From IMG/VR virus record IMGVR_UViG_3300020450_001133: a stretch of DNA of 64,000 nt. The stretch is one strand, 5' to 3'. This document shows positions 49,928 to 54,022 of this stretch, in pieces. A program made the translations under genes and the position numbers. How positions within the stretch are numbered: the stretch's first letter is position 1; each line of letters opens with the position of its first letter. This DNA comes from a virus. Lineage: Duplodnaviria; Caudoviricetes. The notes beneath the pieces are model-generated. The model was not told the origin of the DNA, did no database searches, and saw only the letters and a list, made by a program, of their open reading frames with translations.

Positions 49928-50719
49928 CTATTTATCGTCTTTAGCAATGATGCCTGCACGTTCTACATACAAAGGCATAGCATGATCCGATACAAAATCA
50001 AAGAATTTGAATTGTTTTATTGCCGCCCAAATACCTCTCCATTGGTCTTTTACTCTTTGCCAATAAGTCATAGTTCTAATTTTTCCATGATGATTAATAT
50101 ACATTAATTTACCACCATGTACAAATAATAACCACGTAGGTGGTACACTAGGAACAATATCGTTGTTATTAACATAACGAATGTATGCACCAATATCGCA
50201 ACCCTCTAGGTGCTGACGGAACAATCTATTTCCTACTCTCGGTTGCCCATAAGTTCTAAGTTCCTTCACTGGAATACCTTCGTGTGTTAATGCTTCTGCA
50301 ACTAATACTGCCATTGCTCCACCTAAACTGTGACCAATAACATATACGTTTTCCTGTTTCTTTCTGTTTGCTTTTACAATTTCTAATACTTCATCAAATA
50401 TTAAATTAGTGTATTCATAAAAGCCTGCATGTACTCTACCGTTACGTGGATGTCTTACTGGATATGTTTTTAAATCTGCTAGTATGTCACTGAACTTAGT
50501 TGGTTCTGTGCCTCTACATGAAACAATAATACCATCGTCTCTTGTAAAAAACACCCATGCTTCTGCATCGCCATCTTTTACAAGAACTGCTTTCTTGCGT
50601 TTCATTTTAATTTGATTTTGAGCATCTTTTAACTCTTGCTCACTGAGATATGCCCTACCAGCCAACTTGGCTAAAACAGCCGCACGTTCGCCTTCGGAAC
50701 AGTCTGCTAACCATCCCAT
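49928..50719 (-). CDS. class 3 lipase (likely start 50719)
   Basis: RGTE oxyanion motif, GHSLGG nucleophile elbow, NNNDIVP, DHAM; AGGAG SD; late motif 50761-50768. Confidence 0.9.
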   Translation of the reverse strand: MGWLADCSEGERAAVLAKLAGRAYLSEQELKDAQNQIKMKRKKAVLVKDGDAEAWVFFTRDDGIIVSCRGTEPTKFSDILADLKTYPVRHPRNGRVHAGFYEYTNLIFDEVLEIVKANRKKQENVYVIGHSLGGAMAVLVAEALTHEGIPVKELRTYGQPRVGNRLFRQHLEGCDIGAYIRYVNNNDIVPSVPPTWLLFVHGGKLMYINHHGKIRTMTYWQRVKDQWRGIWAAIKQFKFFDFVSDHAMPLYVERAGIIAKDDK

Positions 50720-50779
50720 AATTACTCCTACATAATCATAATAGATTTCTATTATAGCAGTATTTATCTTTAAGTCCAT

Positions 50780-50812
50780 AAAAAAAGGGGCCTTATTAGA
50801 CCCCCTTTCTTT
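50780..50812 (-). terminator. rho-independent terminator
   Basis: G-run/C-run stem with U tail, about 25 nt after the -1 frame stop at 50837. Confidence 0.75.
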
Positions 50813-50908
50813 GTAGTTATGTAATTATGTTTATAATTAGCACTCCTTAGGATTGGCTTTACAATACCTTTTTAATTCTTTTATTAAAAGTTTTATATCA
50901 CCATCTAT

Positions 50909-50941
50909 GCCATTCTTGTCTGAATGGCTTAGTCCTTTTTT
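50909..50941 (-). promoter_or_regulatory. candidate programmed -1 ribosomal frameshift signal
   Basis: In-phase A_AAA_AAG (50941-50935), 6-nt spacer, GCCATTC-AGACAA-GAATGGC hairpin (50928-50909). Confidence 0.65.
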
Positions 50942-51213
50942 TCCGGAGTTTCTTTATCTTGTAATTCGTCGGTTTGATTATCAATTTCGTCACTGACAGT
51001 TTCTATTACACCACTAGAGACTTTCGCCGCTGTTGCTGTAATGTCTGATACATCTTCTAAAACTGCTGTACTTACAGTAGCAACACCTTTAACAGAACTA
51101 TCTATTACGCCTGTTGTGAAATCTTTTCCACCTTCAATGACTGCTCCAACTGAGGCACATGATGGTAGTAATACTAAACCAAGGATTGCAAGAAGTGAAT
51201 AAAGTTTATCCAT
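50929..51213 (-). CDS. lipoprotein (94 aa; predicted 125-aa frameshift isoform ending at 50837)
   Basis: Signal peptide with LLPSC lipobox, amphipathic repeats; late motif 51260-51267; AGGA SD. Confidence 0.75.
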   Translation of the reverse strand: MDKLYSLLAILGLVLLPSCASVGAVIEGGKDFTTGVIDSSVKGVATVSTAVLEDVSDITATAAKVSSGVIETVSDEIDNQTDELQDKETPEKKD

Positions 51214-51283
51214 ATCTTCTCCTGATTTATGTTATAAGCCAACTGCTATATAACAGTAATATTTATCATTATAACTGTATATT

Positions 51284-51619
51284 TCAATAGGTTAAAGAGT
51301 CTTTATATACAGGTTCGCCACCTAAACTATGTAGGTCTGCATACCATAATTCTTCTAATAGGATTTTTCGTGTGCTTTCATTTTCTGTAGCATTTATTAA
51401 TGTAATTAAATTTTCTCTATTGGATTGCTCTATCTGATAACATAACTCAACCCATTTGTACATAATAAAAAATGTTCCTGGAACAAAAATTATATAAAGC
51501 AGTTGTATTGGATAATAATATGCAACAAGTAATATGTGTAAACCAATTACAGTTGCTAATTGGATATGTACAGAACGTACATATTTCTTTATTGCTTTAT
51601 TGACTTGGATCTGACTCAT
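51284..51619 (-). CDS. hypothetical membrane protein
   Basis: 111 aa with two hydrophobic segments. Confidence 0.6.
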   Translation of the reverse strand: MSQIQVNKAIKKYVRSVHIQLATVIGLHILLVAYYYPIQLLYIIFVPGTFFIMYKWVELCYQIEQSNRENLITLINATENESTRKILLEELWYADLHSLGGEPVYKDSLTY

Positions 51620-51758
51620 ACATCACAGTTGTTGTACCACGCCAATAACCATCTAATCCTATGTCAACCATAAGTGCAATTAATAGTAGTGTCGCAATAA
51701 TGGAAAGGTATAGATTAATACCTGCGGATATTTTCATCCATTTGATTAGATGTTTCAT
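51597..51758 (-). CDS. small single-TM protein (53 aa)
   Basis: Not in track; MKHLIKWMKISAGINLYLSIIATLLLIALMVDIG...; TTGACA-16-TATAAT at 51765-51792, 6 nt before the ATG. Confidence 0.65.
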   Translation of the reverse strand: MKHLIKWMKISAGINLYLSIIATLLLIALMVDIGLDGYWRGTTTVMYESDPSQ

Positions 51759-51796
51759 AGGTATATTATAACAAATTTAAATCATTTGTCAACCAT

Positions 51797-51825
51797 AAAA
51801 AAAGACGCACTCCGAAGAGTGCGTC
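51797..51825 (-). terminator. rho-independent terminator
   Basis: 9-bp GACGCACTC/GAGTGCGTC stem, C(UUCG)G loop, U7 tail. Confidence 0.92.
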
Positions 51826-51869
51826 ATAAAATTGTTTGGGAGAATATAAAATTCTTAAATTTTTAAATT

Positions 51870-52049
51870 TTAAAAGCGAAGTATCGGTTCCATAGCAACG
51901 TACATGAACCAAACCATAAATGCCAAACTGCCTAAAGTGGCTATGTCATTACATAGTTGTCCACTAGGGCAATACTTCTCTTTAAAGGTTGTCCAGTTAT
52001 CTTTTGCAATATGAATTATCGATTTCGCATTACTCGTTGTACTGCTCAT
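51870..52049 (-). CDS. small protein with C-terminal TM (59 aa, start 52049)
   Basis: AGGAG SD; YCPSGQLC motif then hydrophobic helix. Confidence 0.7.
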   Translation of the reverse strand: MSSTTSNAKSIIHIAKDNWTTFKEKYCPSGQLCNDIATLGSLAFMVWFMYVAMEPILRF

Positions 52050-52082
52050 CTTAGAACTCCTGTAGTCTATATTAAATAGCAC

Positions 52083-52253
52083 TCCAGTTCACATTTCCTT
52101 ACGGACAATGCTCAGGGGTTAAAAGTTCCTAAACTTTTTTCAACTTCGTAATGTGAAAATAGTAACCACAATCTTCACCGACAGTTGCCAACACCTCTGT
52201 TGTGGAAGTCGGATTGCTTTAACTTCCAACCTTATTTATCAGAAGTTAAAGCA
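52083..52253 (-). ncRNA. candidate structured RNA leader / ncRNA
   Basis: Several complementary segments (see findings) downstream of late motif 52233-52240. Confidence 0.55.
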
Positions 52254-52289
52254 TGTGTTTAGTTTTGTGGTACTTTTGAATCGAAATGA

Positions 52290-52538
52290 TTATTTCTTTG
52301 ATGCTTTGAGTACTTCAGCGACTAAATCGTCTTTCTTTTTGCGTCTGTCTACTTCAACTCCAAACTCTCTACCTTTCTCTTCGATTTGTGCTTTAGTAAG
52401 TTTTGACAAACTTGCCTTAGTCACTTTCTCTGCAGGTGCAGGTTGAGCCGCTGGTGCTTTCGCTTTTGCCTTAACAGGTTCAACTGCTTTAGGCTCTTCA
52501 GACTTAAAAAAACTGATTATCCATTCGAAAAATCCCAT
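52290..52538 (-). CDS. small Lys/Ala/Pro-rich protein with Rho-N/SAP-like C-terminus
   Basis: LSKLTKAQIEEKGREFGVEVDRRKKKDDLVAEV pattern. Confidence 0.6.
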   Translation of the reverse strand: MGFFEWIISFFKSEEPKAVEPVKAKAKAPAAQPAPAEKVTKASLSKLTKAQIEEKGREFGVEVDRRKKKDDLVAEVLKASKK

Positions 52539-52539
52539 T

Positions 52540-53499
52540 TTATAAACTCCTGTCTAATGTCTCTAACAAATTAAACCTATCATTAAAAATTGGATGATTT
52601 AAGTTGTAAGGGTTAAATCTTTTAAAAGTTGTACTTGCTATTCTATTTGCAACAAGTGTAATTTTTTTATTAACTTTTAAATCCGTAATACTATTTATAT
52701 ATAATTCAACAGTATTTTTATCTAATCTTGGTAAAGATAGCAGTTCAAAAAGGGCAATATCGAACTCTAAGTAACTCATTCCTAGTTGGTCTGCATCACT
52801 ATTTGATATGCCTAAACCGTCAGTTGGAACTGCTTCTACCGTTGCTTGTGGTACATCTAACATCTTTGCTAACATAGGAACTTCCCAACTTTTGTTTAAA
52901 GATTGGATAGGTGCAATATCACCTACGTCACCATGTAGTGTCCAAAACCCTGCGGCTAGTTCACTAAAGTTATCAGTACTACCAACACACCCTGCAACTT
53001 TATGTGCAAGGTTATACAAAGTAATCATTCTAAGTCTTGCTCTGATGTTACCTTGTCTTTGTTGTACACGATATGTACCTGCTTCTAATTCATCTTTATC
53101 TATAATAAACTGTTGCATACTGTCAAACTGTTCACTTAAATCGTAACTATGTGATTCTAATCCAAGTGCTTCTATGTTTTCCAGTCCTCTGTCAGTTTCT
53201 TCTTGATTTTGATGTATAGGCATTGTTACACCATGTACTGTCCAGCCTGCTTCTTTAAACAAAGCGGCAGTTAAGGCACTATCAACGCCTCCACTCATTC
53301 CAACAACAACATCTTCAATTTGATGTTTGTCAGAGTATGCAGATAAATCATCTACTATGCTTTGCTTGATTGCGGCTAGTTCGCCTTCATTTGGATAAAG
53401 ACCATTGTTAATATGTGTTTCCAGTTTGTCTAAAAACCAACTATCAACATCTTCTTCCATCCCTGGAGTAATGTCTAATATTTTATCCTTCATGTTCAC
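52540..53499 (-). CDS. nadE: NH3-dependent NAD+ synthetase
   Basis: PP-loop GMSGGVDS, GNIRARLRM, GFWTLHGDVGDIAPI, PTDGL and DADQLGMSY motifs; no glutaminase domain. Confidence 0.9.
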   Translation of the reverse strand: MNMKDKILDITPGMEEDVDSWFLDKLETHINNGLYPNEGELAAIKQSIVDDLSAYSDKHQIEDVVVGMSGGVDSALTAALFKEAGWTVHGVTMPIHQNQEETDRGLENIEALGLESHSYDLSEQFDSMQQFIIDKDELEAGTYRVQQRQGNIRARLRMITLYNLAHKVAGCVGSTDNFSELAAGFWTLHGDVGDIAPIQSLNKSWEVPMLAKMLDVPQATVEAVPTDGLGISNSDADQLGMSYLEFDIALFELLSLPRLDKNTVELYINSITDLKVNKKITLVANRIASTTFKRFNPYNLNHPIFNDRFNLLETLDRSL

Positions 53500-54022
53500 G
53501 TTGTATCTCCTCGGGCGACTTTATTTTAATCATCGCTCCAATTTTATCTCGACTAACTTTTCTTCTTAGCCAAAATTTCAAATCCTTTACAGGCTTTCCT
53601 TCATCTAAAAAGAAAGACCCCATTTTGCCATGTTTGCCTTTTATAAAAAGTGTCATAGCATATCCACCTTCTGGTATTTCAACTCTATGGAAGTCATTGT
53701 GTGAACGCCAAGCAAACCAGCCTGGTCCTCTCCACTTTCTCTCCTCTCCTCTTACCTCATAGTATCCTCCCGACAGTATGAGTGTAAAATATCCCCAGGG
53801 GTGATTGTGTTCGACAGGTAAATCACTGCCTAATATTAGATTGAAACAAACTCTTCCTGCACCATACTTACCAGCAATTCCATCTTGAAATATTTGTCTG
53901 CCTAAAAATACCCTGTGCATATATTCTTGCCCAGTGTATATATTAGTTAATGTTTCAGTGCCTCGTTTCTTTGCTAGGTACCAAAATAGTTTCTTCCACA
54001 TGTTACTATTTACTTCATTCAC
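53483..54022 (-). CDS. cupin-fold protein
   Basis: HNHPWGYFTLILSGGYYE and HRVEI cupin motifs. Confidence 0.7.
   Translation of the reverse strand: MNEVNSNMWKKLFWYLAKKRGTETLTNIYTGQEYMHRVFLGRQIFQDGIAGKYGAGRVCFNLILGSDLPVEHNHPWGYFTLILSGGYYEVRGEERKWRGPGWFAWRSHNDFHRVEIPEGGYAMTLFIKGKHGKMGSFFLDEGKPVKDLKFWLRRKVSRDKIGAMIKIKSPEEIQREHEG

Follow-up and report, generated by a model that had tools for sequence, protein, structure and literature searches.

The stretch of DNA considered here, referred to below as the window, comprises 64,000 nucleotides (nt) and is deposited in IMG/VR as the virus record IMGVR_UViG_3300020450_001133 (Duplodnaviria; Caudoviricetes). Its source is an uncultured marine phage of the T4 superfamily, with a T4-type DNA polymerase that is at most 45% identical to the polymerases of cultured jumbo phages. 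On the minus strand, 240 bases devoid of open reading frames (ORFs) separate a gene for a SAP/HeH-like protein of 82 amino acids (aa; 52538-52290) from an ORF of 59 aa (52049-51870). In the direction of transcription, a T4-type late promoter box (GATAAATA) is followed by a leader of about 180-183 nt, the 59-aa ORF, which encodes a membrane peptide, and a strong terminator. An earlier reading made from the letters and ORFs of this DNA (the sequence-only reading) had suggested that these parts form a self-contained late unit, in which an undescribed structured cis-acting RNA is tied to a small membrane peptide, and had drawn a fold for that RNA. The unit and its link to the peptide are supported by the homologues described below (42/42 leaders), together with the promoter box and the terminator; judged by the same comparison, the proposed fold is largely wrong. 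The elements of the leader and its gene, as delimited here, are the following.

52240-52233, minus strand: late promoter box GATAAATA; at T4 spacing the predicted start is ~52227, the first core base of P1
52228-52203, minus strand: hairpin P1, UGGAAGUU / GACUUCCA, with a 10-nt loop, at the 5′ end of the transcript
52217-52211, minus strand: GCAAUCC, the part of the P1 loop that pairs with segment X as the 5′ strand of the pseudoknot
52203-52200, minus strand: linker J1/2, ACAA, nearly invariant
52199-52193 and 52119-52113, minus strand: P2, a long-range helix of CAGAGGU (5′ strand) and ACCCCUG (3′ strand) that closes the central domain
52192-52139, minus strand: variable central domain, with P2a formed by CAACU (52187-52183) and AGUUG (52145-52141)
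52138-52121, minus strand: hairpin P3, AAAAGUU-UAGG-AACUUUU, near-invariant in sequence (family form AAAAGUU-NAGG-AACUUUU)
52112, minus strand: single unpaired A after the 3′ strand of P2
52111-52091, minus strand: P4, an 8-bp hairpin with a GNRA loop, G-CAUUGUCC-GUAA-GGAAAUG-U
52090-52088, minus strand: conserved GAA linker between P4 and segment X
52085-52079, minus strand: segment X, GGAGUGC, which supplies the 3′ strand of the pseudoknot and whose AGU (52083-52081) can pair with Z instead
52079-52067 and 52066-52064, minus strand: AU-rich hairpin P5, CUAU-UUAAU-AUAG, and Z, ACU; the X-Z pairing spans a bulged G (52080)
52060-52057 and 52049-52047, minus strand: Shine-Dalgarno (SD) sequence GGAG and start codon AUG
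52049-51870, minus strand: ORF of the 59-aa peptide, with a basic N-terminal part, the motif C-x2-G-x2-C (CPSGQLC) and a C-terminal hydrophobic, transmembrane helix

Conservation and helices of the leader

A search with the peptide yielded 10 IMG/VR loci, in which the leader is conserved across four distinct phage lineages though the peptides are only 50-60% identical. Pattern scans, one for the P3 hairpin and an independent one for the part composed of the promoter, P1 and ACAAC, gave 56 distinct leaders, 42 of them less than 96% identical. A covariance model built from the 3′ part of the leader matches 86 viral or metagenomic loci, once each, including two (L014 and L015) that had been fetched solely via the neighbouring SAP-like gene. 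Across the family, the leader RNA is 150-210 bases in size and has either a long or a short type of central domain. In 185,579 representative prokaryotic genomes the pattern scan found no true copy, its 7 matches all being chance matches in coding DNA, and GenBank phages, searched at the DNA level with the leader and its surroundings (1 kb), returned no match. The sequence-only reading could assign the RNA to no known Rfam family, and Rfam 15 (4227 models) has no match either: at E <= 10 in positions 50500-53500 of the window the leader is matched only by an 18.6-bit microRNA model that falls on an inverted repeat (see below) on the opposite strand, and at E <= 1 in eight diverse homologous loci nothing overlaps the motif.

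The decisive evidence for structure is comparative, namely the conservation of the leader combined with compensatory changes in most of its helices, a check on homologues found via the peptide that had been suggested from the start. That the structure belongs to the minus-strand RNA follows from its many G-U pairs, and there is no conserved reading frame across the leader. With MAFFT alignments of the full leader, RNAalifold recovered only P2a and P4, and not P1, because the variable loops were misaligned; therefore P1, P2 and the pseudoknot were counted by script on anchored positions. Counted in this way, the five core pairs of P1 are 99-100% paired in 42 sequences (slid controls, 0.41-0.68), with swaps of GC to CG, AU to CG and GC to UA. 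P2 is paired in 77% of cases against 27-45% in slid controls, shows several Watson-Crick pair types at positions 1-5 (three or four at positions 2-5), and has its closing C-G replaced by G-C or A-U in L014, L015 and L088.

The strongest figures come from the 3′ part of the leader. Both sides change at 6/8 pairs of P4, where 98.8% of the cells are paired. When P4 and the combined P5/X-Z helix, both also predicted independently by RNAalifold, are taken together in 40 distinct metagenomic copies, 97.0% of the cells are paired, compared with 75.3% in shuffled and 21-43% in slid controls; at 12/17 pairs both partners vary, and covariation scores 0.63 versus 0.21, a value that 0/500 shuffles reach. 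Within the central domain P2a covaries (columns 61-64 with 142-145 of the RNAalifold alignment). In the window, GUCGG (52182-52178) and ACGA (52149-52146) flank a variable hairpin of this domain. Depending on the clade, the domain has a long form, made up of P2a, GUCGG...ACGA and variable hairpins, or a short form with a single hairpin. P3, a hairpin that the sequence-only reading had already picked out and that is kept here, occurs in most of the loci that were not chosen by its motif; it is missing in L071/L079, and in L080 a GAAA-capped hairpin stands in its place. Taken together, this is a complex, conserved and covariation-supported fold in a 5′ untranslated region (UTR), which is one of several traits of riboswitches.

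Most of the other pairings that had been read from the single sequence did not survive the comparison. A pseudoknot of CCACAA with UUGUGG and a helix of CCGAC with GUCGG have no cognate advantage (2732/3000 and 959/3000 permutations, respectively, are as good). A helix of a second domain, UUCACAUU/AAUGUGAA continued by ACG/CGU, is equalled by 251/3000 permutations and conflicts with the strongly covarying P4, and has been replaced by P2, P2a and P4. The complementary words GGAAGU and ACUUCC are indeed present in the sequence. The comparison of folding energies with shuffled sequences, which had also been suggested, gave z = -3.4 for the 205-nt stretch, much of it contributed by the inverted repeat, and z = -2.1 for the predicted late transcript alone.

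Competing pairings of segment X

The sequence-only reading was right about the existence of an H-type pseudoknot, but not about its strands, which are GCAAUCC in the P1 loop and GGAGUGC in segment X. Specifically, a hairpin loop pairs with a single strand on its 3′ side, and compensatory change keeps the pairing: cognate loop-X duplexes reach -5.8 kcal/mol on average versus -4.1 kcal/mol for non-cognate ones, a difference that 0/5000 permutations equal. If the set is restricted to 13 representatives, each with its own version of both strands, the means become -6.3 and -4.4 kcal/mol (11/20000 permutations as good), and they are -3.1 and -1.6 kcal/mol (14/20000) when the shared GCA/UGC is removed from these 13. 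The complementary combinations of loop and X found elsewhere include CAUUGGUC/GACUAGUG, GCAC-AA-CGC/GCG-A-GUGC, GCA-U-ACCU/AGGU-UGC, ACUCUC/GAGAGU and CAUCC/GGAUG.

Segment X is also one side of a second conserved pairing, as 98% pairing is seen at the 4 positions of the X-Z helix, where GC, AU and UA alternate (slid controls, 12-46%). Since the two pairings share the same nucleotides (4-8 nt of X), they cannot coexist. By prediction, the pseudoknot state and the X-Z state hardly differ in energy. With X blocked, the 3′ region loses an average of ~5.8 kcal/mol, which is about the energy of the pseudoknot duplex. The same blocking raises the predicted openness of the stretch from -6 to the AUG from 0.48 to 0.61, and GGAG follows Z at a distance of 0-3 nt across the family. 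A conserved anti-SD within the first 70 coding bases was also considered and is not supported (-4.4 vs -4.1 kcal/mol). In a subgroup consisting of L076, L092 and L111, 7-8 nt separate X (UGAGAGUGC) from a downstream GGAGG, and a 6-bp pseudoknot (ACUCUC/GAGAGU) is retained.

Flanking elements, transcripts and the peptide

The remaining elements of the unit lie upstream of the leader and downstream of the ORF.

52246..52285, minus strand: conserved element of ~45 nt upstream of the late box, seen in the upstream sequences of 42 leaders, in most relatives
52253-52242, minus strand: upstream arm of a 12-bp inverted repeat, pairing with 52226-52215 (P1 5′ strand and loop), in the window clade only
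51825..51797, minus strand: intrinsic terminator with a 9-bp GC-rich stem and a UUCG loop (51825-51804), then a T run

The late box fits the TATAAATA-like late box of T4 (~6 nt before the start and without a -35 element) at 7/8 positions, and (G/T/C)ATAAATA stands 3-6 nt before P1 in 51/51 leaders for which upstream sequence is available. The match of the box, its fixed spacing and the T4-like DNA polymerase identify a T4-type late transcription unit, whose start is a prediction. Other ATAAATA boxes of the window lie 5-75 nt before ORFs; the distance from box to ORF is far greater here (183 nt). In the window as a whole ATAAATA is rarer than expected (22 found vs 32 expected), and about a dozen intergenic copies precede ORF starts by 5-75 nt on the coding strand, as T4-type late promoters would.

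The inverted repeat that had been described around the box is present: its arms TGCTTTAACTTC and GAAGTTAAAGCA (52253-52242 and 52226-52215) enclose the box. It is strong only in the window (-17.2 kcal/mol), L001 and L003 (-15.7 to -17.2 kcal/mol across these three), while outside this clade the mean of -4.07 kcal/mol is no better than about -4.5 kcal/mol for non-cognate arms (3618/5000 permutations as good); a late promoter within a hairpin is thus not conserved among the relatives. The suggestion that, as in T4, read-through and late transcripts fold differently can apply at most to the close relatives of the window, since the family at large lacks the repeat. For the window clade it may add an extra layer, in which long transcripts would be unable to form P1 and the pseudoknot. 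The conserved element further upstream begins with TTGAC-like bases, followed by AAAAUACCAYAAAACUUAAC-N6-GUUAAU with the near-palindrome TTAAC-N6-GTTAA. It occurs a single time in the window, often lies directly past an upstream terminator, and has no match to the sigma-70 consensus; it may bind a regulator, or serve as an early or middle promoter of a non-canonical kind.

Contigs from the RNA libraries of four studies span the leader together with the ORF. One of these libraries comes from a sample in which the DNA is present as well; there, a 379-nt contig covers 51833-52208 at a depth of 42.7, and an upstream contig covers 52236-52653 at a depth of 13. Their word depths differ ~3-fold, positions 52209-52235 are uncovered, and the break falls at the predicted start, which is a weak hint of a start near 52227. 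RNA contigs that join the upstream gene to the leader come from two other studies.

The AGGAG, the 59-aa ORF with CPSGQLC and a hydrophobic C-terminal helix, and the terminator with its UUCG loop and T run were all found where they had been reported, and weak terminator-like Rfam matches coincide with the last. One peptide family (43-65 aa) lies downstream of 42/42 non-redundant leaders, with its start 5-14 nt past GGAG, and C-x2-G-x2-C is present in 37/42 of these peptides. The peptide itself belongs to no Pfam or PHROG family and has no named relative among 5.8 billion proteins; tblastn against GenBank phages gave no match, and a search of the protein atlas gave only sub-threshold look-alikes. 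Members of the family are also found without a leader. In the podovirus-like IMG/VR contigs L004-L006, L008 and L010, the gene stands directly behind that of a family-A DNA polymerase, and its products combine C-x2-G-x2-C with ...WFMYVAMEPIL; the covariance model of the 3′ part has zero matches at these loci. It follows that the peptide moves between phage types and that the structured leader is used only by myovirus-like lineages. In one lineage (L009:3163-3594), the peptide gene is followed by one for a SufE-like protein (...VRGCTTNVWI...). A link of the two-cysteine peptide to Fe-S or cysteine metabolism is pure speculation.

The 82-aa protein encoded upstream of the unit (52290-52538, minus strand) has a hydrophobic N-terminus, a linker rich in Lys, Ala and Pro, and a C-terminal SAP/HeH-like helix-hairpin-helix, with weak PHROG matches to C-terminal parts of the Arc-like repressor and endonuclease VII families. 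Its homologues adjoin the leader in some lineages and lie 2 kb away in others (L014, L015). Directly past the terminator there is a perfect sigma-70 promoter on the minus strand (TTGACA, 16 nt, TG, TATAAT; 12/12; 51765-51792), which drives a gene for a 53-aa membrane protein (51758-51597) that overlaps the gene of a 111-aa membrane protein. Therefore, canonical promoters are probably read by the RNA polymerase of the host.

Interpretation of the leader

The reading we favour, with a probability of roughly 0.55, is that the leader belongs to an undescribed pseudoknotted RNA family of uncultured giant marine phages of the T4 superfamily and acts in cis as a two-state switch for the peptide. The comparison of sequences gives good support to its structure and to its association with the peptide; its function we infer. 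Initiation from the T4-type late box would make the first base of P1 the 5′ end of the RNA, and X is transcribed before Z, so that the pseudoknot could form first. If the pseudoknot is then held, by the conserved purine junction (ACAA, A, GAA), a ligand or a protein, P5 would be left without its base and the AU-rich surroundings of the SD would open; otherwise Z would capture X in a 9-10-bp hairpin that abuts the SD. Possible triggers are a ligand bound to the purine-rich junction, a protein on P3 and the kinetics of folding, and the gated step could be the translation or the stability of the peptide mRNA. In this way a small peptide, possibly active on membranes, would be made late in infection in a dosed or timed manner.

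A number of observations count against a switch of this kind. The SD lies outside both helices, and because its predicted accessibility barely differs between the states (0.46 vs 0.49), we can only infer a regulatory output. L076, L092 and L111 lack P5 and Z yet have the pseudoknot, and the X-Z alternative is therefore not universal; the pseudoknot itself is weak in a few members (L084, L195). The evidence for the pseudoknot consists of duplex energies and permutations and is not a column-wise, phylogeny-aware test, while all counts of covariation are inflated by related sequences. The sample was largely fished out by the sequence of P3 or P1, and the near-invariance of these two elements is partly so by construction. 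In addition, the predicted late transcript only modestly beats its shuffles and its minimum free energy structure misses P2 and P3, and contigs cannot prove starts or levels of transcripts.

A narrower version of the switch is a true riboswitch, in which a ligand or ion at the junction of P1/pseudoknot, P2 and P4 (ACAA, A, GAA) would stabilize the pseudoknot and set translation. We hold it with fairly low confidence. In its favour are the size (150-210 nt), several helices that meet at a junction whose unpaired purines are invariant, the pseudoknot, a mutually exclusive helix beside the ribosome-binding site (RBS) and the strict link to one gene family, and glutamine riboswitches have already been reported in marine myophages (PMC9004378). 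However, there is no clue to a ligand, as the sole regulated gene encodes an unknown peptide; the SD stays free, linkers rich in A may have a purely structural role, and the near-invariant P3 looks more like a site for a protein or a tertiary contact. It is this last feature, kept in sequence rather than by covariation as is typical of sequence-specific protein sites, that speaks for an operator on which a phage or host protein, bound to P3 or the pseudoknot, would repress or activate translation in the manner of gp32 or RegA. The order of pseudoknot, AU-rich tract and RBS recalls the well-established leader of T4 gene 32 (compare the review PMC3014915, and PMC10690425). We regard such an operator as rather unlikely, given that no protein is consistently linked to the leader, the upstream genes varying by clade, and that P3 is absent or replaced in L071, L079 and L080, its invariance being partly an effect of ascertainment. 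A constitutive leader seems to us comparably doubtful: its fold would protect the 5′ end or enhance translation, and loop-X and X-Z would be successive steps of folding without regulation. It would account for the position of P1 at the predicted +1, the classical place of a 5′ stabilizer, for an SD that is open in both states and for the subgroup with a pseudoknot but no alternative helix. Two incompatible pairings that are both maintained by compensatory change are hard to explain unless both function, and a plain stabilizer needs no multi-domain fold of 150-210 nt.

Two further explanations appear less probable. One extends the inverted repeat into a two-transcript model, in which the upstream arm of a read-through or early RNA would capture the 5′ strands of P1 and the pseudoknot, whereas the late RNA would adopt the active fold. 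The arm does pair perfectly with the P1 5′ strand and the loop GCA in the window, L001 and L003, the single base that differs in L001 keeps a wobble pair, and two other studies have RNA contigs across the upstream gene and the leader; nevertheless the model is improbable, with a repeat that is not conserved beyond the window clade and a terminator directly upstream in many relatives, so that read-through is not general. The other is that the element does not act in cis at all, its conservation being due to a small RNA that is stable by itself, to a ribozyme that cleaves itself or to a site in the DNA such as a promoter, operator or origin. Its size is like that of small ribozymes and small RNAs, and the palindromic upstream element resembles a DNA site. 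We consider this very improbable: the G-U-rich covariation is strand-specific and belongs to the RNA level, the Rfam searches match no ribozyme or small RNA family, the RNA contig runs continuously from the leader into the ORF, and the motif always lies 5-14 nt from the start of the peptide.

None of the known systems with which the switch was compared shares its sequence or architecture. SAM-II, SAM-V (from marine Pelagibacter) and preQ1-II are alike in having an H-type pairing in cis between a loop and a downstream strand near the RBS, with a competing pairing, and some of them are marine. However, they measure 50-80 nt, contain the SD inside the pseudoknot and have known ligands, whereas 'loop 3' of the pseudoknot here holds P2, P3 and P4, the SD is outside both helices and there is no Rfam match. 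The Downstream-peptide form of the glutamine riboswitch precedes short ORFs. This riboswitch (glnA RNA / Downstream-peptide, RF01739 / RF01704) has a pseudoknot as the leader does, occurs in marine bacteria and their myophages (PMC9004378), and resembles it, as to context only, in its position before a short ORF; it is a three-stem fold of ~60 nt with an E-loop, and the downstream peptide family is a different one. Neither model matches the window (E <= 10) or the eight homologues (E <= 1), and the words shared with it (GGAAGU, AGGAAC) were dropped for that reason.

Among the systems of T4 itself, the gene 32 leader is similarly a T4-type mRNA leader with a 5′ pseudoknot, an AU-rich tract and an RBS under translational control, but its pseudoknot is small and nucleates the binding of gp32, while the leader here is far larger and has no sequence likeness to it. 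[quoted passage not shown] Late promoters of T4 that lie in hairpins (e, soc, I-TevI) are paralleled in the window clade by a late box in the loop of a 12-bp hairpin, the downstream arm of which is also part of the fold in which the late RNA functions. What such a hairpin conceals in the long transcript of T4 is the RBS; in the window clade it would be P1 and the pseudoknot strand, and the feature is not family-wide. In the mRNAs of type I toxins (hok, tisB, zorO), too, a long and highly structured 5′ UTR with long-range pairings gates the translation of a tiny hydrophobic membrane peptide. There is no homology to them, and a phage late gene is not a chromosomal or plasmid addiction module; the analogy is one of logic only. 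Finally, a bulk catalogue of 8,495 unnamed RNA candidates from IMG/VR is available (PMC10690425), and a fragment of the leader motif may be among them.

The RNA is large, supported by covariation and seemingly restricted to phages, extends across many uncultured marine lineages of the T4 superfamily and is tied to one peptide. To our knowledge, the structured regulatory RNAs of phages are poorly known, and the few phage riboswitches that have been reported are copies of bacterial classes. A seed alignment for the new RNA family is supplied, and the two incompatible pairings preserved by evolution are a concrete candidate for a switch. In its boldest form, which we think distinctly unlikely, the leader would be a new riboswitch class of abundant giant marine phages that senses a metabolite or ion of the host at the P1/pseudoknot-P2-P4 junction and times a holin-like or membrane-depolarizing peptide; if this were true, an RNA that senses small molecules would set a late step of infection such as the timing of lysis. 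More generally, discovery of the trigger would show how a late, probably membrane-directed step is controlled, and could add a new aptamer or RNA-protein module.

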